From assembly GCA_049513715.1 (NCBI GenBank), contig JBEKVV010000005.1:158048-222047 (forward strand): DNA of 64,000 nt, written 5' to 3'. Shown one piece after another: positions 1,986 to 62,274 of the stretch. The DNA comes from Candidatus Bathyarchaeia archaeon (GTDB taxonomy: Archaea; Thermoproteota; Bathyarchaeia; 40CM-2-53-6). The notes beneath the pieces are model-generated. The model worked only from the letters and a program-made list of their open reading frames with translations. It was not told the origin of the DNA and ran no database searches. How positions within the stretch are numbered: the first letter of the stretch is position 1; each line of letters begins with the position of its first letter. A program made the translations under genes and the position numbers.

Positions 1986-2032
1986 TGGTGCGGGGGAGGG
2001 GATTTTGACCCCACTTTACCGGTACATATAAA
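1986..2032 (+). repeat. R1 site 1 (tRNA-Leu 3'-end left arm; att-like duplicate of tRNA end)
   Basis: TGGTGCGGGGGA-GGGG-ATTTTGA-CCCC-ACTTTACCGGTACATATAAA. Confidence 0.92.
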
Positions 2033-2128
2033 CAGGCTTCGTGGGTCCCGTGGTTCCCACATGGATTTGCCAGTGGGACGCATTTCAAATCATCATGAAA
2101 TAAGTCGATTCAAGTTCCGTTGTTTTTT

Positions 2129-2468
2129 TACGGTGGGTCGGATTCGAACCCCCCGTAGTACCCGTGCTTGGCTGGATGAACACCGGACCGTTCTCGGTTT
2201 GGCAGGGTTTGTCGTCGGACAATTCGCTCACAATCTCACTAAATGTGCATCTAACTCTAAACCATTTGGCTGATGCCGAACAGTCGTGGGGTCGATGGGA
2301 TACGAACCCACCAAGATCGGACTTCGAATTCAAAATCAAAGCCAGTAAACAGCCGTAGATGAGAATTGTAATTTGCAGTGGAAATGAGTGTACAGGGTCC
2401 GTCAAATAGTACGCAGGGCCGGATTCGAACCCCCCGTAGCTGTTGTGCTTGGCTCCGCGAACACCGGA
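2129..2468 (-). repeat. Stack of tRNA T-arm/3'-end remnants, including an imperfect ~60-bp direct repeat
   Basis: CGGATTCGAACCCCCCGTAG identical at 2139-2158 and 2420-2439, each followed by GTGCTTGGCT...GAACACCGGA; GTGGGGTCGATGGGATACGAACCCACC at 2286-2312. Confidence 0.75.
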
Positions 2469-2559
2469 TGCTTGCTTTGGGAGAGAAGAATCTAGTAACA
2501 AGACTGAAGCTCTCGTATCTTCTCCCGTGGTGAAAAAGCCGCCACTCAAACAGCACCAG

Positions 2560-2608
2560 TCGGAGATGGGCAGGGGATTTCAACCCCAATTTGCCGGTAC
2601 ATGTAAGC
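2560..2608 (+). repeat. R1 site 2
   Basis: TCGGAGATGGGCA-GGGG-ATTTCAA-CCCC-AATTTGCCGGTACATGTAAGC. Confidence 0.9.
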
Positions 2609-2735
2609 CGTTGAAACTTGTCACGAAATAATGGAGGGCACAACGTAAGATCCGACTGCAGAACATTGACGAAAACATACGCTGAGAGGGGAATCAGGGG
2701 ATAGGTTAAAAACAAACTTGCAACTCAGCCCAATT

Positions 2736-7294: not shown

Positions 7295-8827
7295 TCATTT
7301 GCGCCTTTGGTGCGAACGCTTCATCACCAGCAGTGTCAAAGCAGCACCTGTTGAAACGACAAGAACGATGACAATTATAGTTAGTTGCTCAAGCGAAAGA
7401 TCAAGGGTTGGCCCTGCTGAGGATAGCGTCCCGATGTTCTGCTGACTCGTAGTCTGCGTAACGGATACAGTGGGATTCTTTGAGGCTGCGTTTGCCATCT
7501 CTGATGCTGATTTCGCAGCCTGCATGGCATCTACGAATCCACCTTCACTGAATGACGATTGGGCCTTGGTGAGCTGATTCTTTGCCGCTTCGAGACCGTT
7601 GTCTCTAGATTCGATTTGCGCTTTGGAGATGGCGTCTTGTGCGCTTGCGATTATGTTGTTTGCTTCATTCGCTTGATTCCCCGTCAAAGCATTTGCTATC
7701 ATAACCCTGTAAGCGTAACCCGTTCTGTCAACCACGATGATAGAGAAATCTTTGGCTTGATTGACTAAGGCCGGAATGTTGCTTCGGCCGATGTTGAATG
7801 GGGCATCGAACAAGTCCTTTTCTGGATCTGGATTGCTGTTGGGATGAGAGTCTACGACTTTGACTTGCCCTTCATCAGATTGGCTGCAACATTCAAGAGT
7901 CCATGTTCCATCAACGGTGTAGATGAGGACGCCAAATTGTGGGTCCGGGTAGTTGGAAGATGAATACAAAGAGAGAGATTGGTCTTCACCAAGCTTCTCT
8001 CGGACCTCGACGTAGTATGTCAAAGTAGAGCCCGGCAAGTGAATCCTAGCCAGATACGTTTTGCCTGTGGCATTTTCTAGGGCATCGATGGTGATTGTCC
8101 TCTGAACACTGTCGCTAACGTCTACTATCTGATTTTTCTGGAGCCACCCGAGTCTTATCAGAGACCATGAAGTGAACCCGCCGAGGCTCCAAGACATGAG
8201 GTCCCATGGTCCAAGCCAAACAGCAGATGGTTTGCTCTGCTCAGCAAGCCCGTAGCTGTACAAATCTGGAAGGTGGCCTAGTGCGTGACCAAGCTCATGG
8301 CAGTAAGTGAAGGAATCCGTATTTTCGTTTTCGAAAGAAACGCCGATGCTTGGGAACGCATGAGGCCAGACTTCACCCGCATAGACAATGAACGTAATCG
8401 CATATTTGCCAGCGCCTATTCCCAACTGCCCCAGACGACCCCGTGCTGTTGCGTCGACCGTTTGCATCTGGCCATCATCGTAGTTCCATTCAAACAGCTT
8501 CATCTCCTTCACCTTAACCGGCAACGTAATCCAATTCGGTAGTACCTCAGCTGTTAGCTTCAACTTCCCATAAGAAACCGTGGTGTAGTATTCCTGAACT
8601 TGCGTCACTGTGATCTCCCGCAATTCATCAATTGACTTTGTGTGAGGCAAATCTGTGAAATCAAAGAAAGCCACCAAATACTTTGCTTCGTTGGGAACCG
8701 TATACGCTTGTGCACTCATCGACTTGTTGAGCCATGGTAAGTAGCTTGTAAAGACCAATAAGAGAATAATCAAGCAAGCTAACTTGCTCGCAGCTGACTT
8801 ACTACGGAAACAAGATTCGGCAGACAT
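7295..8827 (-). CDS. Membrane-anchored secreted zinc metalloprotease (M6/immune inhibitor A-like domain)
   Basis: Signal peptide, HELGHALGHLPDLY zincin motif, WDLMS, YYVEVR, C-terminal TM; only gene between R1 sites 3 and 4. Confidence 0.75.
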   Translation of the reverse strand: MSAESCFRSKSAASKLACLIILLLVFTSYLPWLNKSMSAQAYTVPNEAKYLVAFFDFTDLPHTKSIDELREITVTQVQEYYTTVSYGKLKLTAEVLPNWITLPVKVKEMKLFEWNYDDGQMQTVDATARGRLGQLGIGAGKYAITFIVYAGEVWPHAFPSIGVSFENENTDSFTYCHELGHALGHLPDLYSYGLAEQSKPSAVWLGPWDLMSWSLGGFTSWSLIRLGWLQKNQIVDVSDSVQRTITIDALENATGKTYLARIHLPGSTLTYYVEVREKLGEDQSLSLYSSSNYPDPQFGVLIYTVDGTWTLECCSQSDEGQVKVVDSHPNSNPDPEKDLFDAPFNIGRSNIPALVNQAKDFSIIVVDRTGYAYRVMIANALTGNQANEANNIIASAQDAISKAQIESRDNGLEAAKNQLTKAQSSFSEGGFVDAMQAAKSASEMANAASKNPTVSVTQTTSQQNIGTLSSAGPTLDLSLEQLTIIVIVLVVSTGAALTLLVMKRSHQRRK

Positions 8828-8888: not shown

Positions 8889-8939
8889 TTCAGAGATGGA
8901 GAAGGGGATTTTGACCCCAATTTATCGGTACATATAAGC
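8889..8939 (+). repeat. R1 site 4
   Basis: TTCAGAGATGGAGAA-GGGG-ATTTTGA-CCCC-AATTTATCGGTACATATAAGC. Confidence 0.92.
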
Positions 8940-8940
8940 C

Positions 8941-8980
8941 GGTTCAAATTGCGTTGCCCGCACCAGCTGACCCACACACA
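8941..8980 (+). repeat. R2 site (T-loop form)
   Basis: GGTTCAAATTGCGTTGCC-CGCACCA-GCTGACCCACACACA; last 22 bp identical to 10000-10021. Confidence 0.8.
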
Positions 8981-8995
8981 GCCAAGATCGTTTCG

Positions 8996-9889: not shown

Positions 9890-9992
9890 TACACTTCTGA
9901 GAATACCCGCTCCGACTTTAGGAGTTATTCTTGTAAGGCGTCTTTCATTTCATGCGCAAGACTGAAGACTCTCCAAGGGCGCGCCGTTTCTA

Positions 9993-10021
9993 GTGTGTGC
10001 GCACCAGCTGACCCACACACA
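9993..10021 (+). repeat. R2 site (symmetric form)
   Basis: GTGTGTG-CGCACCAGCTGACC-CACACACA. Confidence 0.8.
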
Positions 10022-10039: not shown

Positions 10040-10071
10040 TCAGAGATGGGTCAGGGGATTTTGACCCCACT
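10040..10071 (+). repeat. R1 site 5 (right arm lost)
   Basis: TCAGAGATGGGTCA-GGGG-ATTTTGA-CCCC-ACT. Confidence 0.85.
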
Positions 10072-10175
10072 AGCCTGGTCTTGAGTACGTTTAACAGTAA
10101 CAGTGTAACAGTAATCTATCACGTCAAATGTCTCATTTTGAGATTATTGCGATGGGTTAGTCGGTGGTTCATGTT

Positions 10176-10217
10176 GGTTCAAATTCTGATGCTCGCACCA
10201 TTAGACCCCACACACAC
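10176..10217 (+). repeat. R2 site (T-loop form)
   Basis: GGTTCAAATTCTGATGCT-CGCACCA-TTAGACCCCACACACAC; 10177-10198 is the exact reverse complement of 56384-56405. Confidence 0.8.
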
Positions 10218-10909: not shown

Positions 10910-11046
10910 ACGGGGATATCAACGCGGAGTGGGCATTCGCCCATCCTTTTCGGATTCGAACATCGTGGTTTTGGTCAAGCTCGTATTTGCAGCGGTGAAG
11001 GGCTTAGCTTGCGTTTCACTCAGCGTTCCGACAGCGGTAGCCATTT

Positions 11047-11463
11047 CTACTTTTCAAGTAGGCTTGTGAAGAAGTCGTGGTGTTCTTCTTCCTCAGCCTC
11101 TATTTCTTCGAACATCTCCTTCGTGGCTACGTCTCCTTCCTTGTGGGCTTGTTCCATGATTTCCTTGTACATTTTGATGGCGCCCTCTTCCGCCTTCACG
11201 TCTAGTGTCAACATTTCCGTCAGGTTTTCGCCGACTTTTATCGGGCTTGGTTGTATTGTCGGTTTTCCTCCGAGGTACCAGAGGCGTTCAGCCACCTTCT
11301 CGGCGTGCTTCATCTCATCAACAGCGATTTTCTTGATTCCCACAGTAACGGCGTAATGTTCAACGCCTTTCCATTGAACGTGTTGCCACATGTACTGAAT
11401 TGCTGCCTGCATCTCATCAGCGATCGCATTGTTCAACATTCCCAGCAGCTTCTCTGAAGCCAT
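11047..11463 (-). CDS. Ferritin-like (bacterioferritin-type) protein
   Basis: E..A..QY, DEMKHAE and EEEHH di-iron ligand motifs. Confidence 0.88.
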   Translation of the reverse strand: MASEKLLGMLNNAIADEMQAAIQYMWQHVQWKGVEHYAVTVGIKKIAVDEMKHAEKVAERLWYLGGKPTIQPSPIKVGENLTEMLTLDVKAEEGAIKMYKEIMEQAHKEGDVATKEMFEEIEAEEEEHHDFFTSLLEK

Positions 11464-11600
11464 TCAACACATCTCGACTACCACTCCTCAGAAGCCTCGA
11501 AATATACGACTTTTTTTCAGTAGTGAAAACTCCTCAGGACAGTGAATTACGTAGGGTAATTTATGTGACCTCTAGAAACACGTACTCAGCTTAGAGGCGG

Positions 11601-12393
11601 TTGTACTACGAAAGTTGTTGTCACGTCCGATCATCACTTGGGTTACGCAAATGCTGACAAGACAGCGTTCAACGCATTCCTCGACAACCTTAGTCAAGAA
11701 AGCGATGTTACGCACATGGTTCTTCTTGGAGATGTGGTGGATATGTGGAGGAGGGATGCTGCAGGGGTATTCCTGGAACACCACGACACAGTTGCTAAGC
11801 TTCTTGCTCTCAAATCCAAAGGGGTCCAGGTATTTTACGTGGCGGGAAATCATGATTATCATGTCGTGGATCTTGTCAACCCAGCATATCCCCTTGAGTT
11901 CAGGAAGGAATTGAGCCTGACTGATGGACAGTTCAATTATCGTTTCGTTCACGGCTACCAGTTCGATCCTGAACAGAAGATGCCTTTGATGGCATTCTTG
12001 TGTCGAGTAATGTCCGACCAAGGCGGTGCCCTAGAGAGTAACTTATGGGTAGATTTCAATAGCGTGAACAATATTTTCTCGAAGATAGAACCCTCTTTCG
12101 TAAAAGCAGATCTAGCAGCGATGGCTGAGCGGCTTCACCGGCGCCCTGAGGATAGACTAAAGGAGTCTCTCAATAAAATCAATATGACTGCTTGTAATGA
12201 AGTCAAGCCTGGGGAAGTTCTCATATTTGGTCACACCCACGTTCCATTCGTCAACAAAGCGGAAAACGTAGTGAACACCGGTTCTTGGGTTAAAGACGCT
12301 GTCATCCACAACACCTACGTGGAGCTTAGCGGTGGAAAGCCCAGACTCTTCGTGTACGGTGGACATGAAATAACTGAACGCACAGAACCTTGA
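11601..12393 (+). CDS. Metallophosphoesterase (LpxH-like); 5' end possibly frameshifted
   Basis: VVTSDHHLG motif lies upstream of the listed start (11638); GDVVD, GNHD, HG, FGHTH and NTGSW motifs; no in-frame start codon before the first motif. Confidence 0.75.
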
Positions 12394-12592
12394 CATCCTT
12401 CTTGTTCTCAAACTTTTCTTGCATAACAGCGTATCTCCAAGTGTGATTTTCCGCTTTTGTTTTGTTTCTGTGCTTTCACTCCTGACAAGCATGACTCGTG
12501 CGAGGAACTGAAACATGTTTTGCGTTCAACTGTTAACAAGAAAGAAGAAGAGAGAAACCACGGTCTGCTGTCTCCCTCTGCGGCGGATTGGG

Positions 12593-13244: not shown

Positions 13245-13272
13245 TTCAGGGATGGGGCAGGGATTTTGACCC
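13245..13272 (+). repeat. R1 site 6 (right arm lost)
   Basis: TTCAGGGATGGGGCA-GGG-ATTTTGA-CCC. Confidence 0.82.
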
Positions 13273-13339
13273 GAACTAAGTCGGAGTTAGACTATTACTG
13301 TTCGCTACAATAATCACTGGTTGTGGAGACGTCGACGGA

Positions 13340-13765
13340 ATGAAGCTTCTGTTTGTCTGTTCTGGCAATACGTGTCGAAGCCCTATGGCTGAAGGAATTG
13401 CTCGCAAGATGTTTGAAGCCAATGTTCACGTCGAAAGCGCTGGAACCCACGCCCATGTTAGGGACCCCCCGGCCACCAATGCTGTGAAAACCATGCGTGA
13501 CAAATTCGGAGTGGACATTTCGTCACATCGATCCCGGAGCGTAAATGACGTGCACATCGAGGAGTTCGATTACATTGTTCCAATGGCTGATGTTGTTCAA
13601 GACGATCTGAAGGAAAGTTTTCCAAGTTTAGGCGAAAAACTGATGCCCTCATGGAGAATAGATGATCCCTACCGTGGCGACCTCCGCACATATGAAGAAA
13701 CAGCCGCCAAAATTCAGAAACATATGGAAGAGCTTTCCATTTTCCTCAAGAAAACAAAGAGATGA
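13340..13765 (+). CDS. Low molecular weight phosphatase (LMW-PTP/ArsC family)
   Basis: FVCSGNTCRSPMAE P-loop, SAGT, DDPY; only gene between R1 sites 6 and 7 (~540 bp unit). Confidence 0.9.
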   Translation: MKLLFVCSGNTCRSPMAEGIARKMFEANVHVESAGTHAHVRDPPATNAVKTMRDKFGVDISSHRSRSVNDVHIEEFDYIVPMADVVQDDLKESFPSLGEKLMPSWRIDDPYRGDLRTYEETAAKIQKHMEELSIFLKKTKR

Positions 13766-13789
13766 TTCGGAGAACTATGCGTGCACAGT

Positions 13790-13834
13790 GAGTGAGTAGG
13801 GGATTTGAGCCCCAATTTACCGGTACATATAAGC
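13790..13834 (+). repeat. R1 site 7 (left arm degenerate)
   Basis: GAGTA-GGGG-ATTTGAG-CCCC-AATTTACCGGTACATATAAGC. Confidence 0.88.
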
Positions 13835-16964: not shown

Positions 16965-17015
16965 TTCAGGGATGGGTCAGGGGATTTTGACTCCAATTTA
17001 CCGGTACATATAAGC
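16965..17015 (+). repeat. R1 site 8
   Basis: TTCAGGGATGGGTCA-GGGG-ATTTTGA-CTCC-AATTTACCGGTACATATAAGC. Confidence 0.92.
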
Positions 17016-17038
17016 TAGCAATGCAACGAGCAACGTCA

Positions 17039-17132: not shown

Positions 17133-17184
17133 GGAACAAGTCCCGCTCAAACGACGATAAGACGCCACTAGTTCACAATAGTGA

Positions 17185-24510: not shown

Positions 24511-24552
24511 TACCTACGTGAATCCTTGGGACGCAGGGAAATCATCTAACTC

Positions 24553-24598
24553 GTGCGGGGGAGGGGATTTCAGCCCCACTTTACCGGTACATATAAGC
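24553..24598 (+). repeat. R1 site 9 (tRNA-Leu 3'-end left arm)
   Basis: GTGCGGGGGA-GGGG-ATTTCAG-CCCC-ACTTTACCGGTACATATAAGC. Confidence 0.92.
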
Positions 24599-48210: not shown

Positions 48211-48395
48211 ATGAGCAGTACAGAAATCTCTTTGAAGGTTGCTGACGCCAGGCAGCGAGATGTTGGGCAGGGCAAAGTCCGCATTGTCAACGACACGATG
48301 CAGAAGCTCGGAATCACTGCGGGAGATTTTGTTGAAATTCATGGGAAAAAGATGACTGTAGCTGTAGCATGGCCCGCGTACGCTGAAGATCAGGG
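48211..48395 (+). pseudogene. cdc48: 5' fragment of a CDC48/VAT AAA ATPase, cut at R1 site 10
   Basis: SLKVADARQRDVGQGKVRI...MQKLGITAGDFVEIHGKK.TVAVAWPAYAEDQG matches the Cdc48 N-domain start; reading frame runs into the repeat and stops. Confidence 0.85.
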
Positions 48396-48438
48396 ATGGG
48401 GTAGGGGATTTTGACCCCAATTTACCGGTACATATAAA
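48390..48438 (+). repeat. R1 site 10
   Basis: TCAGGGATGGGGTA-GGGG-ATTTTGA-CCCC-AATTTACCGGTACATATAAA. Confidence 0.92.
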
Positions 48439-48446
48439 CTGGCTTT

Positions 48447-48526
48447 GTGGGGCCGGTGGGATTTGAACCCACGATTCGTGGGACTAATGACCATTTTAGG
48501 AGCCCGAAGGGATTCGAACCCTTCGA
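48447..48526 (-). repeat. Two tRNA 3'-end remnants
   Basis: GTGGGGCCGGTGGGATTTGAACCCACG and GGAGCCCGAAGGGATTCGAACCCTTCG on + are reverse-complement T-arm plus acceptor strands. Confidence 0.75.
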
Positions 48527-48592
48527 AGTGAACTTCAATCATTGGAGTGCCCAACCGTTCTGGCACGTTCTGTCGCAGCATTATCGTTGGAG

Positions 48593-51996: not shown

Positions 51997-52381
51997 ATGT
52001 ACCCAGCCACTTGGATGATGAGTTCTGCAGCTTCATCTTCGCCTCGTCAACATATTCGAGCAGAGTGCGACTCGGATTGTCTGTGAACTCGAGCCCCAAT
52101 TTGAGGTAGAATCTTCTGGCGATGGCCTTTGTTATGGTCTGCGAACTGCGAACGCCAAAAATCTTCTCCAGAGTAGTGAGTAGAGTGTCAAGTCTGTAAG
52201 GGACCTCATCCCTCGAAATGGAGTAAATTGTTTGTAGATGGGCATATAGCGCATCAACCACGGCTTGGCTAAGTAGATCAGTTATGGTCTCGTCTATGGA
52301 TTCGACCAAGACATCGTTGAACTCTCTGCCGAGTTGTGGTTGTCGCAATTCAATCAGCGGATCTTGAAGGCCTCTATGCAT
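51986..52381 (-). CDS. Conserved archaeal hypothetical protein upstream of the kinase
   Basis: 131-aa helical ORF overlapping the kinase start. Confidence 0.6.
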   Translation of the reverse strand: MHRGLQDPLIELRQPQLGREFNDVLVESIDETITDLLSQAVVDALYAHLQTIYSISRDEVPYRLDTLLTTLEKIFGVRSSQTITKAIARRFYLKLGLEFTDNPSRTLLEYVDEAKMKLQNSSSKWLGTCVD

Positions 52382-52396
52382 CAGCGCCTGAGAGGT

Positions 52397-52558
52397 TTAT
52401 TCCTCGATCTTCACCGTGCCTCGTTTTACCAGAATCTTATCGTGGTCTTTGATGAACACTATTAGGTCGCCGTTGTTGGCCCTGAGGAATTCTCTTACAA
52501 ATTTCGGGAGCGTCAACTGATATTTTCCCGTAATCGTAGACTTACCTACAACTTCCAT
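52397..52558 (-). CDS. AbrB/MazE/SpoVT family DNA-binding protein
   Basis: STITGKYQLTLPK.VRE.L....GD.IVF. Confidence 0.85.
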   Translation of the reverse strand: MEVVGKSTITGKYQLTLPKFVREFLRANNGDLIVFIKDHDKILVKRGTVKIEE

Positions 52559-52775
52559 GGAATCACGCCTACATGGAAACATGGAATACGTGGTCATACG
52601 TATTCTGTCACTATCAATAGGACCGTTTGGTAACAACCCAAGCAAACGTGGAAAAGCCTTCGAAAACGGCTCAAAAATGAGGAGAGCAGGATCAAAATCG
52701 GGCTATCAAACCCATGATATGGTGGGGTCGGTGGGATATCAGCCACGAATTTCGATACAGGGTGTGGAGCTGAAA

Positions 52776-52820
52776 GCGCCGGGGGTGGGATTTTGACCCC
52801 ACTTTACCGGTACTTATAGG
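52776..52820 (+). repeat. R1 site 11 (tRNA-Ser-like 3'-end left arm)
   Basis: GCGCCGGGGG-TGGG-ATTTTGA-CCCC-ACTTTACCGGTACTTATAGG; a further tRNA-end-like remnant at ~52719-52747. Confidence 0.88.
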
Positions 52821-52922
52821 CCATTAAGATTCGTGAAGCGAATTACTGGCTTATTGTCTACTGAGAGAGAAACTTCTTCTAAGTCTTACTATGCACTCCT
52901 GTACTTGGTTTGGAGCGTTGGC

Positions 52923-53284
52923 TTTGGTTCGGTCCTAATTCAGCCACTTTTTGGGTGCTGTGAGCCACTGGGTGGAATAGTGGAACTTGCGCCACGCTAC
53001 CTTAAGTATAACTTGGGCCCTTGTAAGGTTAGGAAAGATATCCGTAGAGGTGAAATGAAAAATGGCAACAAAACGCAAGGTCAAGATGCGAGTTAACGCA
53101 GACGCTCCAAGATCCGAAAAGGGTTCTAGTGAATACGTAGCATAAGCCCATCGTGGCTTGATGATTGGACGGGTTTTTTTCGGAACCGTCCCGACGACCC
53201 TTTTTCCGGTAAACTCACAATTTTCAAGCGTGCGTGCGGGTCTAATGTTGCAGGCAACTATGTTGAGACGTCTAAGTTCAGAGA
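52923..53284 (+). repeat. Micro-cassette copy 2
   Basis: Homologous to 1620-1976; lies between R1 sites 11 and 12. Confidence 0.9.
53062..53145 (+). CDS. 27-aa basic peptide MATKRKVKMRVNADAPRSEKGSSEYVA (not in ORF track)
   Basis: GAGGTGA ribosome-binding site, CTTAAGTATAA TATA-like box; 26/27 aa identical to 1753-1836. Confidence 0.75.
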   Translation: MATKRKVKMRVNADAPRSEKGSSEYVA

Positions 53285-53327
53285 TGATTCAGGGGATTTC
53301 AACCCCAATTTACCGGTACATATAGGC
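53277..53327 (+). repeat. R1 site 12
   Basis: TTCAGAGATGATTCA-GGGG-ATTTCAA-CCCC-AATTTACCGGTACATATAGGC. Confidence 0.92.
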
Positions 53328-53403
53328 GAACTAGTGAGTCCGATGAGACATCACCCGGCCAATTGGTGGGGTTACGGCATTTTCTCCTTCCCAGCTTGTT
53401 GTA

Positions 53404-54720
53404 TCACGCAACGAGAATCAGGAAGAAGTACAGTACTGTAACAGTGACGACTGTGATGGGAATTCCGATTTTCAGAAAATCGAAGAACCTCACGGTCTGT
53501 CCTTGCTTTTCAGCTTCCTCTACGATGATGAGGGTACTCACTGCCCCAAGCAACGTAAGATTACCCGCCAGTGTACTTCCCGCCCCAAGGGCTATCCAAG
53601 CGTAAATGCTCTGTGAACCGAAACTCAAGGATTTCATCAACGGAATGTACAGCGCAACCATCGGTACATTACTCAAGACCTGACTAAGCAAGACACTGGA
53701 AACCAGAATTGCCGCGATAGTCGAATGAGGGCTCCCAACGCTAATCGCAGGAAGGTAACCAGCCATGGCAGCGATGATGCCGTTATCCCACACAGCCTGA
53801 GTAAGCACGAACAATGAAGCGAACAGGACGAGAATGCCCCAATCAATCGATTGGATAACTTCCCTACTACGACCGCAGAAAGCCAATAACAGCACCGCTC
53901 CGAACAGTGATACTTCAGCAATTCCAAATGGCGTTCCTACTCCTACCTCTTCAAGGAAGTTCACAAGAAATATCGCAGCAATGGTCAGGGTGGTGATTGA
54001 GATAGAGAGCTTTGCGAACCGGCCGTCTTTCAAGACATCTTTCTGCACTGCGGCTTCAAAATCAATCAAGTCCCGGAAACCCTTTCGTGCCCTCGCAAAC
54101 TCATGACGGAGTAGATGCCTCAGAAGATAATAGGTCAGAATGAGGTTGATTATTGTTGGGATCAGCAGGTATTTTGCAAAGGTAAGCACGGGTGCCCGCA
54201 TTCCACTGGCCAAGGCAACGAGTAAGTTCTGCGGATTTCCCATTGGTGTTACGACGCTGCCGATAGTAACAGCGAATGCTAATGTAAGAAGGAGAGGTCG
54301 TGAGGGGATCTTCATTTTCTTGGCGAGCGAAATCATGACTGGAGTGCCCATGAGGGCGAGGGTGTCGTTCATTAGAACGGCGCTGGCTGCTGCAAACCCG
54401 AAGAATGTTAGATACAAGACGTCCTCAGGTTTCTTCGCCTTAAGCAAGAGCCAAGTTGTGAATGTGTCCAGGACTCCTGCAATGTCAAGTGCTGTGACTA
54501 GCGTAAACATGCTGAAGAGAAAGAGTAAGACATGAAGATCAACTGCCTTGTAAGCGTCGGTTACGCTGATCGACCCTGACACAACCATGGCTGCTGCACC
54601 AATCAGCAGAATCAACCAAATTGGAAACTTCCACCCTTTCACGTTTCGGAAAGCTAGGACAGCGTAGGTTGCAGCGAAAATACCTAGTGCGACAAGAGGC
54701 TTAGGATCGGGAAGAGACAA
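53404..54720 (-). CDS. ArsB/NhaD (SLC13/CitMHS-like) anion permease
   Basis: SA.LMND, GS..TPMGNPQN, SQ.LSNVP, STLAGNLTLLG; only gene between R1 sites 12 and 13. Confidence 0.88.
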   Translation of the reverse strand: MSLPDPKPLVALGIFAATYAVLAFRNVKGWKFPIWLILLIGAAAMVVSGSISVTDAYKAVDLHVLLFLFSMFTLVTALDIAGVLDTFTTWLLLKAKKPEDVLYLTFFGFAAASAVLMNDTLALMGTPVMISLAKKMKIPSRPLLLTLAFAVTIGSVVTPMGNPQNLLVALASGMRAPVLTFAKYLLIPTIINLILTYYLLRHLLRHEFARARKGFRDLIDFEAAVQKDVLKDGRFAKLSISITTLTIAAIFLVNFLEEVGVGTPFGIAEVSLFGAVLLLAFCGRSREVIQSIDWGILVLFASLFVLTQAVWDNGIIAAMAGYLPAISVGSPHSTIAAILVSSVLLSQVLSNVPMVALYIPLMKSLSFGSQSIYAWIALGAGSTLAGNLTLLGAVSTLIIVEEAEKQGQTVRFFDFLKIGIPITVVTVTVLYFFLILVA

Positions 54721-54832
54721 ATTTCCAACTCAAATGCTCAACGAAACAGTTCAGTGGACATTCTCGGGCCAACCTTGAGACGACGTGTCTGGCATTGATT
54801 TGTGTGTCATTAAAGGAAGCTTCTGAACTAGC

Positions 54833-54882
54833 TCACGGATAGTTCAGCGGATTCGAACACCAATCTACTTGTACATATAAGC
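54833..54882 (+). repeat. R1 site 13 (degenerate)
   Basis: TCACGGATAGTTCA-GCGG-ATTCGAA-CACC-AATCTACTTGTACATATAAGC; same spacing as consensus; followed by a tRNA-end remnant and an R2 site (54924-54959). Confidence 0.7.
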
Positions 54883-55000
54883 ACAGACTTGTGAGGCCGG
54901 TTGAATTTGAACCCTAGTTTTCAGTGTGTGTGTGCACGCACCAGCCTATCCACACACACGAGAGGACTGGCTGCTTGTAACTGCGGCTAATGCATGATGT

Positions 55001-56344
55001 TTAGCTTTGGACTTTGCCAGAAATCATGGCGCCACCGCTTTCCTGTTTCCGGTTGTGGTGGAATATGATGAAGAGCAAGCAACCTATCACCAGAAACACG
55101 CTTCCCATCAACAGTATTTGCAGATCCATATAGGCCAGTAAAGCCACTGAGGAGATCACCGCCAAGAATGGGATGTATCGGGTGTGTAATACGTGAGTTT
55201 TCCAATTCGCTCTGGCGAGTAGTCTGATGGTCGAAAGACAGCTGAAGAGATATGGAATAATTGTGAAGAGAATTGTTAGAGAAGCCAAGCTTTTGAAATC
55301 TGAAACGGCGAAGACTAACGAAATGGCGAGAACAGTCTGAATCATCATGGCGCGATCAGGAGTATTGAATCGGCTGTGCAAATGGTCTAAGAAGCTGGGG
55401 AACAAGCCGTCCTTTGCCATCGCATAAGATATTCGTGAAGCTCCGAGGATTACGGCATTCAATGAACCTAGGATAGCGATCAATCCACCCAACGCTACTA
55501 GAATTCCTCCAGCATTTCCGACGTATGACTGGGTTGCCGCTTGGAACAGGTCAGCAAGGGGTGATTGTGAGGTCAGGTATGATTCCCAACGTCCTAATCC
55601 CAACGCTGCGCCAGCGACGAGTAGATAGATCGCCATGACAGTGAAGACGGAGATGATTATGGCTCGGGGGACGGTTTTCTTGGCGTTATGGATTTCTTCT
55701 CCAGGCACGGTTATTATTTCGACACCCAAGTATGCCCACAAAGCGAAGACGGTGGCGGATCCGATTGCTGGTAGGAGATTTGCTTTTGGAGGAAGTAGTG
55801 GGTAGTAGTTCTTGAAGTTCAACAATGAAAACCCGACAATTGCGAAGACGATGAGTGGAACTATTTTGCCCACCGTGAATACGTCTTCTGTCCTCCCCCC
55901 TGATTTTACGCCTCTATAGTTCACCGCAGTTAGAAGAAGAGCGATTGCTGTGGAAATGAGTATTCTCTGGAAGTTCGAAAGGTACGGCAGGAAGAATCTC
56001 AAATAGAGTGACGCTGCGACTGTCTCAGTCGCTATCGTCATCCAATATCCAGTTCAGAACGACCAACCGGTCAAAAACCCAACGCCATTTCCGAATGACT
56101 TGTGAGCGTAAGCGTAGAGTCCTCCTACCTGAGGCACTTTCTGCGCATTCTCCGCAAAGCAAAGACCGGTTATTATTGAGTAGACTCCTGCTATGATCCA
56201 CGAGACAAGCGAATATGTACCTGCCACGCTTGCCATGAGTATTGGAAAGAGGAATATTCCGGAACCTATTATGAAACCAATCCCGAGAAGCACTGAGTCG
56301 AAGAGACTCAGATCTTTAGTGAACCGCGTCTGGACTTTTCGCAA
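55001..56344 (-). pseudogene. APC amino acid permease interrupted by an in-frame TGA (56054-56056)
   Basis: ORFs 56054-56344 and 55001-56041 share a frame: GFLTGWSF*TGYWMTIA; IIGSGIF, GGLYAY, WAYLGVE, SRISYAMAKDG. Confidence 0.82.
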
Positions 56345-56383
56345 CTTGGGCTGTGATGACTAAGAGGGGATTAATACGTTTCC

Positions 56384-56527
56384 GTGCGAGCATCAGAATT
56401 TGAACTTGTTCAATTTCGTGTGTGTGTGGGTCTGATGGTGCGGGCACCAGAAATTGAACTGTCAGTCCCGCCGTAATTTTGTGTGTGTGCGCGCACAAGC
56501 ATACCCACACACAGGTCTGGTGGTGCG
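56384..56527. repeat. Cluster of R2 sites
   Basis: GTGCGAGCATCAGAATTTGAAC; GTGTGTGTGTGGGTCTGATGGTGCGGGCACCAGAAATTGAAC; GTGTGTGTGCGCGCACAAGCATACCCACACACA; GGTCTGGTGGTGCG. Confidence 0.78.
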
Positions 56528-57514: not shown

Positions 57515-57645
57515 GCCTATCGCTTCATCTCATCGCTGGGCAGTACGAAATCGAACTCGCAGGTCAACTAAATCATTTCGAAAGTGAATGGTGGACTCAT
57601 CCGCCTAGTTTCAATCGTCGACTAGCCTCACAGTATTTTCTCTCT

Positions 57646-57686
57646 GTGCGTGTGATACCAATGGTGCGAGCATCGCAATTTGAACC
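57646..57686 (-). repeat. R2 site (inverted, degenerate)
   Basis: GTGCGTGTGATACCAA-TGGTGCG-AGCATCGCAATTTGAACC on +. Confidence 0.7.
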
Positions 57687-57828: not shown

Positions 57829-57879
57829 TTCAGAGATGGGGCAGGGGATTTCAGCCCCAATTTACCCGTACATATAAGC
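57829..57879 (+). repeat. R1 site 14 (closest to the integrase)
   Basis: TTCAGAGATGGGGCA-GGGG-ATTTCAG-CCCC-AATTTACCCGTACATATAAGC. Confidence 0.92.
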
Positions 57880-58007
57880 CAGCAGTGCACGGAACAACGT
57901 AAGTTCAAACTCCGTTCCTCGGAATAGTAGCGGAATAGCAGACCCATACACAAAATCAGAGTTCAACACACCAGAGAAGGAAGTTGTAAGGGAAGGATGA
58001 AGGAGGC

Positions 58008-58577
58008 ATGTCTATCTTCCGGATCGGGAGGCGACTTCGAAGCCAGCGAGGATTAGCATCCCTTATCGCTTTGTACGCAATTTCCGTTCTCCTGGATTGG
58101 GGAACATCTGCGCTTTTCACTCTAATGAGGTTCGGTGAATGTGAAGGGAACAGCATCGTTCGTGCCTTCTTCGAGAAGCCTACACTGGAAAACTTCTGGT
58201 TACTTGCAGGGAACCAACTGTACTTGCCCGTAGCTAATACGTGGCAAGATTGGATTAGCTTCGCGTTTCTCACCATGCTGCCGTTTGGAGCAAGCGTTGC
58301 CCTAATTGCAATCCGGCTAAGACCATCCTTTGCGCAATGGTCAAAGGTCAGCTTGGGCTTTGTATCGAGATTCCTTCAACAGATATTCTTGGTTGTTATT
58401 GTCATTCTGATTTCGATCCGCTTCCTGCTGGGAGCTGCTTCCAATATTGCAACGATCATATCTGTCAGTCTCTGGGCGCAATGTCTCACAGGAAACGGCG
58501 CCTTACTTCTATTCACCATATGTGGAATTGCGCTCGCCATCTTCTGCCTTCTCTTCCTTGAACAACTTAACAGGTAA
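58008..58577 (+). CDS. Hypothetical membrane protein
   Basis: GAAGGAGG ribosome-binding site; 4 hydrophobic segments; LD...T......E.N pattern. Confidence 0.6.
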   Translation: MSIFRIGRRLRSQRGLASLIALYAISVLLDWGTSALFTLMRFGECEGNSIVRAFFEKPTLENFWLLAGNQLYLPVANTWQDWISFAFLTMLPFGASVALIAIRLRPSFAQWSKVSLGFVSRFLQQIFLVVIVILISIRFLLGAASNIATIISVSLWAQCLTGNGALLLFTICGIALAIFCLLFLEQLNR

Positions 58578-58592
58578 CACAGGCCTCAGACA

Positions 58593-59060
58593 ATGACACA
58601 CCACAGGAAAGACGAGACGAGTGAATGGGAGAAGATTGCACCTCAGTGGGTCATAGCAGATAACGAGAAGTTGAAAGAGGAAGGCTTCAAGGTCCAAGCA
58701 GCTGCACGTTCTCTGATACGAAGACTCGGATATGATATTCTGAAAGCTGAAGAGGAAATGTTTTCTCCAGCAAAGATGCAGATTCTGGAAAGGAAGCTGG
58801 GACGTCACTTAGCCAGATATTCTGACTACATTGTCAGGAGCGGAAGGCACCTATACGTTGTTGATGTTAAGGCCAAAGAATTCGGGATTCTAATCGTCGG
58901 TGGACAGCGACACCTTCTGTTTAACGAATCGATATTTCTTCACAGAGACTACGTCGACACCATGGTTCCTGTCCTTGTCTTGGCTGTTCTGTACCCAAGA
59001 GGTCTATTTGGTCCCTCAGGAATGCGAAACAAGAAGGTGTACTATATTATGTGCGACTCG
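58593..59060 (+). pseudogene. Probable PD-(D/E)XK nuclease-like protein, 3' end replaced by an antisense methyltransferase fragment
   Basis: E..G, YSDYIV...LYVVDVKAK pattern; after ~59050 the ORF is the shadow of the minus-strand MTase. Confidence 0.45.
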
Positions 59061-59341
59061 ATTCCGAAACAGGTTCGGCAGAGCTTCTCGGCTGCAATCA
59101 AAGTAGGCCCGGAACCTAGGAATGGATCCAGAATTGTCTTTGAGGGAAAGAGGCCCAACAGGTCAACAATCAGCTCCACCGGTTTCTCGGTTGGATGCTC
59201 TGGTCGACCACTAACGCGTCTTTCACGAAACACGTTACCTCTGAACCAGTCCAGTTTCGGGGTGCCATTGTAGAATGCGTGGATCTGCTCATACTGCGCG
59301 CAAAGCTGGCTTTGCTGCGTGTGTTCTGAGACCTTCGACAT
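59042..59341 (-). pseudogene. Fragment of an N4/N6 DNA methyltransferase (beta-class C-terminal part)
   Basis: HPTEKPVELI and ILDPFLGSG.T.IAAE.L.R.C.GIE; catalytic xPPY part absent. Confidence 0.75.
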
Positions 59342-59347
59342 GGCCTT

Positions 59348-59611
59348 TCACCGAGTACTGAAGGACAAACGCTTGACGGGTTGTTCGACGTGGCGGACTC
59401 CTAGTAACGTCGGAGATTGATCATCGGTTCCGAGTGAGTATGCAATGGTGATTTCCTTGCCTATCAAGTGTCGCAGGTGCCGTTCGCTTACGCCCCTTGG
59501 TCGCGTTGAGAGCTTCAGCGTTATACTGCCTAGGTCGAGTTCAAGTATAACCCCGGATTTTGTTTTATGTAGCTTCTTTAGCGAACCTTTTGCTTCGCAA
59601 ATGCTGGCCAT
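59348..59611 (-). CDS. Hypothetical protein
   Basis: 87-aa ORF co-oriented with the MTase fragment. Confidence 0.4.
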   Translation of the reverse strand: MASICEAKGSLKKLHKTKSGVILELDLGSITLKLSTRPRGVSERHLRHLIGKEITIAYSLGTDDQSPTLLGVRHVEQPVKRLSFSTR

Positions 59612-59743
59612 GCTGTATTATTATATGCTGAGAAATGGTTAGATGCTTTCAGATCTCACCTATGTGCCAATCGCAGTTAGATGAGAAATGGATATACCTC
59701 TGACGTAGTTTTTCTCAAAAATTGAGAAATCCGGGAAAGTTCT

Positions 59744-60541
59744 ATGCCAAGAAAACGGGTGGAAATGAAAGGGAGAAAGAAGGATCCCAGTCTTGATGCC
59801 GTTATCGTTTGGTTGCTGCATAAGAACGCCCCGTTGCGGTATGATTGTCTGGAGAAGGGTGTGGCTGAGAAAGCCCGGCTAATGGACCAAATGAACAGGC
59901 CGTCATTCAAGAAGAAAATAAAGTACGACTATCTCCGAATGCTGCTAGATGAGAAAATTGTTCGCAAGCTGATCCATGATCATCAAGACTACTACGCACT
60001 GTTTGACTACGCCCCTAAAGACGCAGAGGTTGTCTGGATCATCGAGGAATTCCTTCGAAAACATGGAAGCTGGCCCAGCATTGAACAGATAGGCGGAAAG
60101 ATGGGTATCACTCCAAAAGAGGCAGAGCGGATTGCCTACAAACTTGCACCGCTGACAGGTTGGAGCACGGCTGCGCCTGACGACACCGATTACCAAGACT
60201 TCGTAGGTCGCTTGGAATTAGCGGCTTGGATAAGGATTGGTTGTAGAGAGACGAAATTCGTCAGGGAACATTGGACGCCTAATGACATCAAATGCGCTGA
60301 AAGTCTTCTATCTCGTTATCCGGATCTCCTGCCGATCATAAACGCCTATGAAGGCGAGAGCGAAAAGATATTCCACTACACCTTTAGATGGCCAGACTCA
60401 CCGATTCAAACAAACCTCGATGCGATGCGTGTTCACAAGGCCAATCGGAGCGACTTCAGAGGATCTACCGGACTAAGAATTCAGAAACGAGACAAAACTG
60501 CCCGCTCGTCAACGCCGGAGGCAGGCGATATCGTTACTTAG
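59744..60541 (+). CDS. Hypothetical protein, possible HTH domains
   Basis: 265 aa; WPSIEQIGGKMGITPKEA HTH-like segment; converges on the integrase. Confidence 0.55.
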   Translation: MPRKRVEMKGRKKDPSLDAVIVWLLHKNAPLRYDCLEKGVAEKARLMDQMNRPSFKKKIKYDYLRMLLDEKIVRKLIHDHQDYYALFDYAPKDAEVVWIIEEFLRKHGSWPSIEQIGGKMGITPKEAERIAYKLAPLTGWSTAAPDDTDYQDFVGRLELAAWIRIGCRETKFVREHWTPNDIKCAESLLSRYPDLLPIINAYEGESEKIFHYTFRWPDSPIQTNLDAMRVHKANRSDFRGSTGLRIQKRDKTARSSTPEAGDIVT

Positions 60542-61497
60542 ACTCCAAGTTGCGGTATGAAGGCCAAGTAAGCACGCCTCAGTTCCTGCCTATCGACGCG
60601 GTCGTAAATGTCGATCGCTTCTCGCCTCCGATCACCTCTCAGAATTTTGATAAATTCACGGTCCATTCCCGCACGTCGTAGATGCGTAGTGAAAAAGTGT
60701 CGAAAGCAATGTGGTGTGAGATGGTCTTCAGGTCTCGTCGATTCCGGATTGTGCAGTCCAACGGCCGTCGCGTATTTGACTGTCAGTTGGTATATGCCAT
60801 GGCGCTTCAGTCTGCCGCCTCGCTCACCCACAAATAGCGCAGGTGTTTCTGGGTGAAGATTCTCCCTTTGCGTCAGCCAACGTTTCAGTAAACGTGCTGC
60901 TTCATCGTCAAAAAAAACTGTTCGACCACTCCGTTTCTTGAATTGCTTTCGCTGCAGTGTCATCGACTGCTCAGTCCAATCGATATCGGTAATGTTCAAT
61001 GAAATCAGTTCCCCCCGCCTCAGGCCAGTCTTCGCAAGCAGCGTCAATATGGCCTTGTCACGGCTATCAACAATTGAGTTGATCAGCATGCTCATCTGTT
61101 CCACTGAAATTAGCTTGCGCGGTGATTCAACGTCACCTTCCATCTCTTTCTTGTATGGGGTCAAGTAGCGTTTCCGCACTTCCGGGACAGGATTCTTCCC
61201 AACATAATCTTCGAAAGCCAAAAACCTATAGAAGCTAGAGATGCCGGACACTTCGTTTTCAATAGTCTTCTGATCAGTCCCATTAGACCTCCTCACCCTA
61301 ATGTAATCTTGCAGGACGTGTTTGTCAACATCAACAGGTCGAACATTCCCCTGCTCAATGAACTTCAAGAATTGCTGGGTAATGGATTTGTAGCGTCTGA
61401 TAGTCTCATTGGTGAGTCCCCTAATTCGACAGTCCTCCACGAACAAGTAAAGAAGCTTCTCTGGGCTGGGAGCCTGAACGATGATTTGTTGGCTCAT
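60538..61497 (-). CDS. Tyrosine recombinase/integrase (Xer-like architecture)
   Basis: N-terminal SAM-like domain (RGLT.ETI.RY; SFYRFL...KNP), TGLRRGEL, FKKRS, PHCFRHFFTT, LRGD...AIDIY. Confidence 0.95.
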   Translation of the reverse strand: MSQQIIVQAPSPEKLLYLFVEDCRIRGLTNETIRRYKSITQQFLKFIEQGNVRPVDVDKHVLQDYIRVRRSNGTDQKTIENEVSGISSFYRFLAFEDYVGKNPVPEVRKRYLTPYKKEMEGDVESPRKLISVEQMSMLINSIVDSRDKAILTLLAKTGLRRGELISLNITDIDWTEQSMTLQRKQFKKRSGRTVFFDDEAARLLKRWLTQRENLHPETPALFVGERGGRLKRHGIYQLTVKYATAVGLHNPESTRPEDHLTPHCFRHFFTTHLRRAGMDREFIKILRGDRRREAIDIYDRVDRQELRRAYLAFIPQLGV

Positions 61498-62018
61498 TCA
61501 GATACCCACCTCCAACCGTGATGCGTTTTTCGAACCAGCCCATAGGCTTCCAAGTTCTCCAGCTGATTACTCACCGCCTTTACAAGATCACTTTCTTTTG
61601 GACTAATGCGGAGCAGGTGCAGCAGATGGTCGGAGTCTATTGCCTCACCTTTCTTTAGAAGGTCAATCAGCTTCCGATCATACTTGCGAACCCCTTGGAA
61701 TCCATCATCTAGAAATGGTGCGGCCCTATACCTACGAAGTTCAGCCTCAACTCGCTCCAAGGCCAGTTTAACGATTTCATTCTCACGGGTCAGCTTCTGA
61801 ATTTCCTCATCCTTCTTTCGGAGGTGTTCAATCATCTTGGCTCTTGGTTCGTAACGTTCTTCACCCGCTTCTTGGCGTAGGGAGTTGGTTGCATGTTCGT
61901 GGATAAATTTTGAAAGTGTAACGTGGTTTTTCTTCGCTTTCGTCTTCCAGTCTTCCATTTCCTTCTCTGATTTCAGGTAGATGTAGACGGTGCGGTTCTG
62001 CAGTTGAGATCTTGGCAT
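61494..62018 (-). CDS. Predicted DNA-binding accessory protein (RHH-like N-terminus, coiled coil, winged-helix-like C-terminus), coupled to the integrase
   Basis: TVYIYL...WK.KA....TLSKFI; coiled coil; LENLEAYGLVRKT..GWRW; stop overlaps integrase ATG (ATGA). Confidence 0.7.
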   Translation of the reverse strand: MPRSQLQNRTVYIYLKSEKEMEDWKTKAKKNHVTLSKFIHEHATNSLRQEAGEERYEPRAKMIEHLRKKDEEIQKLTRENEIVKLALERVEAELRRYRAAPFLDDGFQGVRKYDRKLIDLLKKGEAIDSDHLLHLLRISPKESDLVKAVSNQLENLEAYGLVRKTHHGWRWVSE

Positions 62019-62052
62019 GCTGAACGGAGAAAACGTACTCAAAATGGGCTAT

Positions 62053-62096
62053 TATGTGTACCGGTAAAATGGTGCGGGGGAGGGGATTTGAACCCC
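62053..62096. promoter_or_regulatory. tRNA-proximal att site: inverted arm + tRNA 3' end + T-arm core
   Basis: TATGTGTACCGGTAAAA (reverse complement of the R1 right arm, one mismatch over 16 bp)-TGGTGCGGGGGA-GGGG-ATTTGAA-CCCC. Confidence 0.85.
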
Positions 62097-62274
62097 TGAA
62101 CCCCTGCGGGACGAGGTCTCTTAACATTCCTCGGTTTCGAATGTTCCTGAGCTTCGCGTACACATGGTTCCTTGATGCGTCTCGCGCCTTTGACCTGGCC
62201 TCGCCCTCCCATCTTTTCATTTGAGAGTTGGGCGCTGGGGGGCAAAGCCACCTCTTTGCGGTGCCTACCCCCGC
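62070..62274 (-). tRNA. tRNA-Leu(CAG) with multiple introns
   Basis: Acceptor GCGGGGG/CCCCCGC-A-CCA; T-loop TTCAAAT; Leu variable arm TCCCGCAGGGGT; anticodon arm CGAGG-CT-CAG-GA-CCTCG restored by removing 62118-62145 (37/38) and 62153-62180 (30/31); extra hairpin inserts in the D-arm region. Confidence 0.85.

Follow-up and report, generated by a model that had tools for sequence, protein, structure and literature searches.

Cis-mobilizable elements (CIMEs) are integrase-less elements flanked by attachment (att) sites that have accreted beside integrative and conjugative elements (ICEs) or integrative and mobilizable elements (IMEs), at the 3′ ends of tRNA or other genes, and "gene capture" is known from Sulfolobus. 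Archaeal elements integrate into tRNA genes, sometimes in tandem and with subsequent loss of the integrase (PMC8371274), and the integrated elements of Thaumarchaeota have been surveyed (PMC6563490). Integrons have been reported from archaea (10.1101/2022.02.06.479319), and clusters of attC sites without an integrase are grouped under the term CALIN (PMC7923331). In Prochlorococcus, tycheposon islands are described as elements stacked behind tRNA genes, with partial tRNA copies between them and decayed remnants (Hackl et al., 10.1101/2020.12.28.424599). The tycheposon-built islands appear by analogy to be the closest described system to the locus reported here, which occupies the last 64 kb of contig 5 (C5) of a metagenome-assembled Candidatus Bathyarchaeia archaeon genome (contig JBEKVV010000005.1, positions 158,048 to 222,047; hereafter the window). 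Within it, a repeat of about 50 bp, termed R1, recurs 14 times over 60 kb that end at a tRNA gene and a tyrosine recombinase gene. It is reasonably probable that R1 is an att-type junction of tRNA-targeting integrative elements, and that the 60-kb stretch is an accretion island at a class-II tRNA.

The genome (G000) comprises 2.79 Mb in 11 contigs, with an estimated contamination of 8.79%. The window was scanned with a 30-nt pattern derived from the first two R1 copies, allowing up to 3 mismatches. Eleven matches were obtained, all on the plus strand, and zero matches were seen across 100 shuffles. A repeat search returned the same family (D1) as 13 copies of 50 nt, including weaker ones at 10040 and 54833, and the fourteenth copy (13246-13274) was found through a second repeat family (D10) together with a scan for the left arm. 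All 14 copies lie on the plus strand and are thus co-oriented relative to the anchor tRNA. The preliminary description of this DNA had listed 14 co-oriented cores and had matched the core to a tRNA T-arm; both points were reproduced. An intron-bearing tRNA gene occupies the minus strand, and its T-arm, taken as the reverse complement, gives GGGGATTTGAACCCC at 62082-62096. The same description states that one copy truncates a gene, but no such gene was identified among the open reading frames (ORFs) of at least 80 aa at R1; those that overlap or adjoin a copy include 48076-48420 and the scanned 1977-2273, 2085-2549, and 2257-2715, for which Pfam gave no family.

Alignment of the flanks showed R1 to be sharply bounded, with the consensus TCAGAGATGGGGCA / GGGG-ATTTyrr-CCCC / AATTTACCGGTACATATAAGC. 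The repeat is a composite of an arm (AATTTACCGGTACATATAAGC, with the segment TTTACCGGTACATATAA), a T-arm-like GGGG-N7-CCCC hairpin, and a tail, for which class B has a genuine tRNA end (…CCCCGCACCA) and class A has TNCCCCATCTCTGA. The copies in the window are the following.

1984..2033, plus strand: R1 of class B, in which the right arm is fused to a reverse-complemented tRNA 3′ end (TGGTGCGGGGGA and hairpin); this junction lies outermost in the array
2559..2608, plus strand: R1 with left arm GTCGGAGATGGGCA and loop ATTTCAA
7165..7214, plus strand: R1 of class A, from pattern and repeat search
8890..8939, plus strand: R1 of class A, with a copy of the repeat R2 (see below) directly after it at 8940-8987
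10040..10070, plus strand: truncated R1 with left arm and hairpin and no right arm; homology ends after CCCCA
13246..13274, plus strand: truncated R1 without right arm; its hairpin is the left border of a block encoding a low molecular weight protein tyrosine phosphatase (LMW-PTP)
13785..13834, plus strand: R1 whose left arm, GAGTGAGTA, is unusual; in genome G012 the homologous block ends at this same arm
16966..17015, plus strand: R1 of class A, the right flank of which is matched at position 4999 of contig 6 (C6:4999)
24549..24598, plus strand: R1 of class B with the acceptor tail of the anchor tRNA, GTGCGGGGGA, lacking CCA
48390..48439, plus strand: R1 of class A; in the minus-strand reading, a tRNA 3′ end (…GGGTTCAAATCCCACCGGCCCCA) precedes it by 9 nt
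52772..52821, plus strand: R1 of class B with the acceptor end of a different tRNA, GCGCCGGGGGTGGG, of the type targeted by the integrase pair in genomes G002 and G003
53278..53327, plus strand: R1, class A-like
54833..54882, plus strand: degenerate R1
57830..57879, plus strand: R1 of class A, the distal border of the 4.2-kb integrase-bearing element

The outermost copy gives the clearest view of the tRNA contribution: 1986-2012 agrees with the end of the anchor tRNA (62070-62096) at 25 of 27 bases, CCA included. To describe R1 more generally, 176 distinct 50-mers were collected. The hairpin is a degenerate T-arm. Its stem is GGGG/CCCC in 135 of the 50-mers; no compensatory changes were found among the 176, and variants break the pairing. 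Four loop alleles predominate (ATTCTGA in 51 copies, ATTTTGA in 31, ATTTCAG in 25, and ATTTCAA in 21), and the canonical T-loop ATTCGAA is present in just 6. Alleles are genome-specific, with ATTTTGA, ATTTCAG, and ATTTCAA in G000 and mainly ATTCTGA in other genomes, and each of the four is found with tails of class A, class B, and other kinds. Class B tails, being exact tRNA ends (T-N-CCCCGC-A-CCA), occur in 39 copies, class A tails (T-N-CCCC-ATCTCTGA) in 77, and other tails in the remaining 60. The first six bases past the stem are identical in classes A and B, which diverge thereafter, and the class A tail cannot rebuild a tRNA. The right arm carries ACCGGT inside AT-rich, partly symmetric flanks; when it was compared with Xer/dif-type sites, which have two inverted recombinase-binding arms about a 6-8 bp center, the full palindrome TATGTACCGGTACAT was present in 2 copies, and no such motif was seen in the unoccupied tRNA flank of genome G013.

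Several other identities for R1 were considered and set aside. A C/D-box RNA was rejected for want of a C box, a split-tRNA half because the fragments begin at the T-arm and not at position 38, and a terminator or promoter because no consistent relation to the orientation of adjacent genes could be seen. A scan against Rfam gave no family for R1, the one weak match in the scan being a tRNA-like end at 48445-48521. The consensus has one 4-bp stem, a 7-nt loop, and no GTT, and holds no attC-type RYYYAAC…GTTRRRY palindrome, a comparison made with no covariance model of attC.

The tRNA at which the array ends, and the genes behind it, are the following.

62069..62274, minus strand: intron-bearing class-II tRNA of ~205 nt, the anchor of the array; called Leu by the assignment of the preliminary description only
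62050..62068, minus strand: inverted R1 arm motif, CCA-TTTTACCGGTACACATAA, abutting the tRNA CCA; this is the element-side arm of attL
61494..62042, minus strand: accessory protein of 182 aa, upstream of the integrase gene and overlapping it
60538..61497, minus strand: Xer-like tyrosine recombinase (integrase) of 319 aa, from profile and structure comparison
57880..60537, strand unassigned: five ORFs inside the integrase element, with no Pfam, PHROG, or NCBIfam family

The anchor tRNA, which ends in GGGGTTCAAATCCCCTCCCCCGCACCA, was not called by ARAGORN. For the integrase, the best NCBIfam model was archaeal XerA at 181.6 bits (cut-off 220), followed by XerD and XerC, and the nearest solved structures were likewise XerA and XerD. 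Integron-integrase models gave 42.5 bits (cut-off 265) and 24.2 bits (cut-off 435), both below threshold, in keeping with the earlier assignment of a non-IntI enzyme. It is the single tyrosine recombinase gene in the window, as had been noted, and only one other clear tyrosine recombinase could be found in the genome; the region of this second enzyme (C1:526-538 kb) contains no R1 arm and no 16-mer direct repeat.

The proposed accessory protein also held up. Its gene is colinear with that of the integrase in all six related loci, five of them in four genomes of the genus and one in a Hadesarchaeon, and identity across the four full-length homologues aligned is 50-70%. A structure model of moderate confidence (mean pLDDT 71.6, from 5 sequences) combines a long central helix with a winged-helix-like domain at the C-terminus, with weak fold matches (E 0.02-0.1) to MarR, ArsR, and RuvB-type winged helices; this supports a conserved, predicted DNA-binding partner of the integrase. 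In bacteria, ArgR takes part in Xer recombination at the cer sites of plasmids. An ArgR-like identity for the accessory was examined and dropped, the hints being weak (20 bits in NCBIfam, and three ArgR chains in the PDB at E 0.4-1) and the fold search pointing to a generic winged helix. The five ORFs at 57880..60537 are not conserved in the other integrase loci.

The link between these proteins and R1 lies in the arm. In all seven loci with the integrase and its accessory, the pair lies directly behind a tRNA, either of Leu type or of a second type ending in …CCCACCCCCGGCGCCA, and the tRNA CCA is followed in all seven by (A/T)TTTAC(C/T)(G/A)GTA, which is the R1 arm motif in inverted form. One metagenome contig has a near-identical tRNA followed by CCAATTTACCGGTACGTATAACC and no integrase. 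Because the inverted arm stands behind the tRNA in the integrase loci, the full attachment site can be reconstructed as an inverted arm, the 27-nt tRNA end, and a second arm, of which R1 would represent the left arm and core. Integrase orthologues (63-66% identity) were detected in 4 of the 22 other genomes of the genus, plus one fragment, and the pair sits in a mobile element at different tRNAs and not on a fixed platform.

This arm also bears on the idea that R1 is a dispersed intergenic repeat, of the repetitive extragenic palindrome (REP) or miniature inverted-repeat transposable element (MITE) kind, or a regulatory sequence, for instance a portable promoter, unrelated to site-specific recombination today. 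A motif shared with the attL of the integrase in seven loci is hard to reconcile with such an element, as are hybrid copies with exact tRNA ends. The arm does contain TATA-like TTATAT/ATATAA, but R1 has no consistent position relative to gene starts or ends, and within arrays it is strictly co-oriented whatever the orientation of the genes. No terminal inverted repeats or target duplications could be recognized by eye. What can be said for a REP, MITE, or regulatory repeat is that R1 is spread over the genome and the genus with no recombinase family recurring nearby, that it stands between ordinary metabolic genes, and that its hairpin shows no compensatory changes. Overall, an origin of this kind is regarded as improbable.

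The behavior of R1 as a border was examined by comparing R1-bearing loci from metagenomes and relatives with one another and with the whole of G000 (93 sources). After exclusion of 45 near-identical alignments and of 37 endpoints at sequence ends, 259 internal homology endpoints were kept. Of these, 53 fell within R1 ± 12 bp, where R1 makes up 2.0% of the bases, an enrichment of ~10 times over chance. Individual cases show how such borders look. The LMW-PTP block, 92% identical to its counterpart in G012, starts within the R1 hairpin in both genomes and ends in both at an R1 with the same unusual left arm. At C6:4999, an R1 resembles the copy at 24549 in its left flank (92%, 79 bp) and the copy at 16966 in its right flank (99.75%, 400 bp), the switch occurring between the loop and the right arm. 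G013 and a metagenome contig share, at 95% identity, a 4.3-kb block encoding an ACT-domain protein, ArgG, and ArgH. One end of the homology falls inside an R1 in both sequences. The other end adjoins an R1 in G013, and in the metagenome contig ~135 unshared bases separate it from the following R1. Beyond the block, the flanks of the two sequences are unrelated. These borders, together with the tRNA-end tails, agree with the earlier proposal that R1 is a tRNA-derived recombination junction bounding blocks of genes.

Intervals between R1 copies hold from 0 to more than 20 genes, on both strands, with no common promoter and no common orientation. Several had been described as single-gene intervals, which was confirmed for arginase, LMW-PTP, a CitMHS permease, and the 510-aa ORF at 7295-8827; the label "M6 protease" was not, a Pfam search of the 510-aa ORF returning 0 families at E ≤ 0.001. 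Pieces of the window that span one or a few genes are 84-96% identical to sequences in other species, where they lie in unrelated contexts (e.g. 10996-11513, 11514-12395, 13261-13768, 17104-17745, 45595-46166, 46300-46929, and 53396-54733). By comparison, identity is 64-70% for those flanking genes that are matched most widely and recur in many genomes of the genus. With genus relatives, single genes only can be aligned, and the genomes are too diverged for an empty-site comparison of the whole island.

Beyond the window, a relaxed definition of R1 gave 46 copies in G000, or 47 with the copy at 13260, spread over at least 10 contig regions. Only one of these regions adjoins the integrase, in disagreement with the expectation that R1 would cluster next to this integrase clade. 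Near contig ends lie 43 of the 46 (start and end of C1, start of C2, ends of C3, C4, and C5, starts of C6 and C7, and within C9-C11). Copies on one contig nearly always share an orientation elsewhere too, as do 5 of 6 copies shown on C4, 5 of 6 shown on C7, 4 of 4 on C10, and 7 of 7 matches listed on contig 4 of G013. Each of the three isolated internal copies follows a tRNA 3′ end at a distance of 9-150 nt. Genus-wide searches used a strict pattern and then a covariance model. The strict pattern was matched in 13 of the 22 other genomes of the genus and in none of 18 genomes from other genera of the order. The covariance model extended this to 19 of the 22, with 45 matches in G000, 21 each in G004 and G017, and co-oriented local arrays. 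An exact match to R1 is present in more than 127 metagenome contigs, and no exact match to the arm and stem was found in viral contigs. G013, which is 100% complete, has the orthologous tRNA with an unoccupied 3′ flank (CCATTTCTGCTAACG…) and an R1 array of the same polarity ~11 kb downstream.

Clustering at contig ends, in a metagenome-assembled genome with 8.79% contamination, raises the question of whether the array is a product of mixed-strain assembly or of chance T-arm similarity. The occurrence of R1 in many genomes and contigs and its absence from 100 shuffles speak against this, and two independent sequencing runs each cover 57837-63580, the integrated state, in a single contig without any difference. 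An artefact is therefore very improbable indeed.

The proteins near R1 were then inspected. The most common protein cluster occurs in 7 of 86 sources; the recurrent clusters examined comprise ABC ATPases, lipases, flavin oxidoreductases, MFS transporters, KaiC-like ATPases, and a few families without a Pfam assignment, with no recombinase among them. Other tyrosine recombinases are encoded in 17 of the 22 other genomes, and nothing consistent in their pairing with R1 was seen in the three loci inspected.

These data can be assembled into the following scheme of accretion. In the free element, attP would consist of the last ~27 tRNA bases (T-arm, acceptor strand, and CCA) within an inverted repeat, TACCGGTAAAtt … (a/t)TTTACCGGTA, the arms of which are probably bound by the integrase and its winged-helix partner. 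Crossing-over, placed within the tRNA-identical block, would rebuild the tRNA and set the new DNA directly behind it. The earlier junction, an element arm joined to a displaced tRNA tail, would thereby become an R1, pushed outward and marking the far end of the insert. The newest block would lie nearest the tRNA, and each internal junction would read as a class B R1 followed by the start of an older block. Most blocks may have lost an integrase or never had one, moving in trans or together with an integrase-bearing neighbor, and class A copies may have multiplied as parts of moved blocks or by exchange among R1 sites. Repeated insertion behind one tRNA leads to co-oriented R1 copies, and the scheme further accounts for tRNA anchoring in two species, for class B, and for isolated copies behind tRNAs.

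Several observations weigh against the scheme. A true tRNA tail is present in at most 3 of the 14 junctions of the window, and the class A tail breaks the tRNA, so that simple insertion at tRNAs fails to explain most copies. All 30 matches to the class A left half in the genome are R1 copies, none of them joined to a tRNA body. Even the border of the integrase element itself, the R1 at 57844, has loop ATTTCAG and a class A tail and is no clean direct repeat of the tRNA end, the loop of which is ATTTGAA. Neither R1 nor any clear repeat was found at the far ends of the integrase elements of G002, G003, and G008. The inverted, attL-type arm motif exists as a single copy in the whole genome, against 46-47 of R1, and one integrase serves 14 junctions in the window, where no integrase fragments were detected. 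Across the genus, R1 is found in 19 of the 22 other genomes and integrase orthologues in 4. No homologue of the integrase or the accessory (E ≤ 1e-5) was found in 80 R1-bearing metagenome loci (435 kb in total, including 12 loci identical to G000), nor was an integrase seen among the 27 ORFs of at least 100 aa scanned in the array region of G013 or the 46 scanned around the array on contig 45 of G004. Some blocks, moreover, hold genes of housekeeping type (ArgG/ArgH, eIF-1A, TFB). The distribution counts bear equally on the earlier suggestion that one recombinase captures and stacks cassettes at these sites, which they do not support; the refuting condition named with that suggestion, R1 scattered through the genome independently of the integrase, largely holds.

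Part of this evidence could be read as active integron-like exchange, in which circularizable cassettes with one R1 each are recombined, R1 with R1 or R1 with a tRNA end, by the Xer-like integrase and its accessory acting in trans. Arrays without an integrase would then be the counterpart of attC clusters without an integron integrase, and the disparity between two clear tyrosine recombinases and 47 sites in the genome would be expected. On this reading, class A sites cannot have originated at tRNAs and must have spread from site to site. The 50-bp site is intact and conserved in 19 of 22 other genomes, and the flanking genes shared most widely with the window are about 65-70% identical there. 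The genome-specific loop alleles suggest homogenization within a genome, and the four main alleles, each with class A, class B, and other tails, fit exchange among R1 sites, as does the recombinant copy at C6:4999. Breakpoint enrichment at R1 and one-gene blocks in either orientation can be added. Present-day exchange was looked for in public sequencing runs, labeled as peat, of which 24 were found, all as assembled contigs, a form that drops rare variants; no circle or deletion joint between R1 copies was seen in four of these runs, where the only joints had sides of 20-35 nt and were explained by other R1 copies. Furthermore, R1 and the integrase do not co-occur across genomes, the integrase pair is mobile among different tRNAs with no fixed platform, cassettes share neither promoter nor orientation, and R1 holds one of the two arm repeats of the reconstructed full site. 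Active exchange of this type is considered rather unlikely. The broader proposition, that the genus runs a tRNA-derived, integron-like exchange with the mobile integrase and its partner acting in trans on dozens of R1 sites and class A as a self-contained, tRNA-independent pool of cassette sites through which single accessory genes pass within and between species, is considered unlikely. The accretion reading is retained: the array is best read as resembling tycheposon islands or integrase-less satellites, and as integron-like in layout only.

A number of further observations concern the contents and surroundings of the array. Left of the first R1, the gene for a pyridine-nucleotide-disulphide oxidoreductase (286-1431) has orthologues in G014 and G004 between genes with G000 counterparts at C1:316-319 kb, and in G001 beside neighbors matching C4:80-81 kb and C1:311-314 kb; with the counterparts of these neighbors lying elsewhere in G000, this gene is itself displaced relative to the three relatives. 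Between the first two R1 copies, 2085-2480 contains no protein gene and three minus-strand, T-arm-like tRNA fragments (2129-2187, ~2290-2310, and 2410-2468). A 287-bp segment ending at the left arm of the R1 at 48390 (48110-48396) is 91-96% identical in G004, G014, G008, and G003, far above the widely shared flanking genes; it has no Rfam match and overlaps a 96-aa ORF without a Pfam family. Extra copies of eIF-1A (45650-45952) and TFB (46442-47374) lie inside the array, the eIF-1A region having a 95% identical copy at C2:374169-374606 and the first 630 bases of the TFB region (46300-46929) being 96% identical in another species. The block that follows the R1 at 48404, with a response regulator and a histidine kinase (48399-52640), has copies at C1:888639-892385 (96%) and C5:98130-101268 (90-93%). 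An internal duplication (28010-28107/41367-41464, 100%; 29146-29445/41455-41754, 97%) fuses a portion of one peptidase gene (M24) to another (M42), giving a 634-aa ORF (40188-42092). At 55001-56344, two ORFs (346 and 96 aa) together represent one amino-acid permease, the gene for which is probably broken. The contig closes with 450 bases (63551-64000) that recur at the starts of C4, C6, and C8 (88-96%), and this repeat probably breaks the assembly. A solitary Cas1 gene of 405 aa (L027:4094-5308) is encoded on contig 45 of G004, which carries an R1 array, and may belong to a casposon.

The second repeat family, R2, combines a T-loop and one variable strand of the T-stem with an acceptor-like GCCCGCACCA and a trailer, nnnGACCCACACACA, that is conserved. 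Copies were located at 8940-8987, 9988-10021, 10171-10209, 17037-17135, 17726-17745 (minus strand), 22320-22353, 24462-24509 (minus strand), 54925-54958, 56384-56513, and 57638-57685 (minus strand). R2 thus occurs in both orientations, and it often abuts the right arm of R1, both in the window and in numerous metagenome loci. Part of the family takes 34-bp, palindrome-like forms (TGTGTGTG…CACACACA). R2 may be the junction of a second family of elements.

Bathyarchaeia are abundant and uncultured in sediment and peat, and gene exchange among them is almost unknown. A tRNA-anchored exchange hotspot is a known kind of structure, hardly described so far in this archaeal group, and the present locus offers a defined 50-bp junction, a candidate integrase/accessory pair, and a recognizable putative binding motif. 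Dozens of accessory-gene blocks (transporters, peptidases, and oxidoreductases) recur between species at an identity well above that of the surrounding genes. Should the sites still be active, they would explain the movement of flexible genes and would constitute a simple archaeal recombination system of two proteins and a short site. If they are scars only, R1 would map the main hotspot of gene turnover in the genus and explain where assemblies break.

The preliminary description had read this system as an integron analogue distinct from IntI/attC systems. A place outside known kinds is not supported, as its layout matches that of tRNA-anchored accretion islands already on record. As described for tycheposons, tyrosine-recombinase elements sit at tRNA 3′ ends, here in the window and six related loci; the displaced tRNA 3′ end forms a direct repeat at the far border, here at 1986-2012 with further copies at 24551 and 52772; units are stacked in one polarity, newer ones pushing older ones inward, with 14 co-oriented junctions in the present case; and integrase-less remnants accumulate together with cargo for transport and metabolism. 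Differences from the published account of tycheposons are also apparent. The junction here is a 50-bp composite of arm, tRNA-like core, and tail, found genus-wide and mostly with a tail that is no tRNA end; 47 copies stand against two clear integrases, the units having none of their own; and the host is an archaeon, with a Xer-like integrase and a dedicated winged-helix partner. Tycheposon mobility has been demonstrated experimentally, whereas the R1 system is known from sequence alone.

CIMEs share the tandem arrangement of att-bounded, integrase-less blocks with one integrase-bearing element, which might mobilize them in cis through a distant att site, but known CIMEs are bacterial, linked to conjugation, and made up of one or a few blocks, in contrast to 14 junctions in 60 kb. 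Tandem archaeal elements differ in being whole elements of several kilobases with plain tRNA-fragment repeats; the portions of PMC8371274 that treat them contain no multi-copy composite junction like R1, and the term Bathyarchaeota is absent from that review. R1 differs from MITE and REP sequences in its single orientation per array and, by eye, in lacking terminal inverted ends and flanking duplications. Integrons, finally, resemble the R1 arrays in that short gene blocks stand in arrays, a conserved site of recombination type closing each block, that arrays without a neighboring integrase correspond to CALIN, and that sites resemble one another more closely within a genome than across genomes. 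They are set apart from the R1 system by its non-IntI integrase, by the lack in R1 of a long imperfect palindrome and a GTTRRRY core, by blocks that carry genes in both orientations and often several of them, and by the anchor of the array, which is a tRNA gene in place of an attI/Pc platform.

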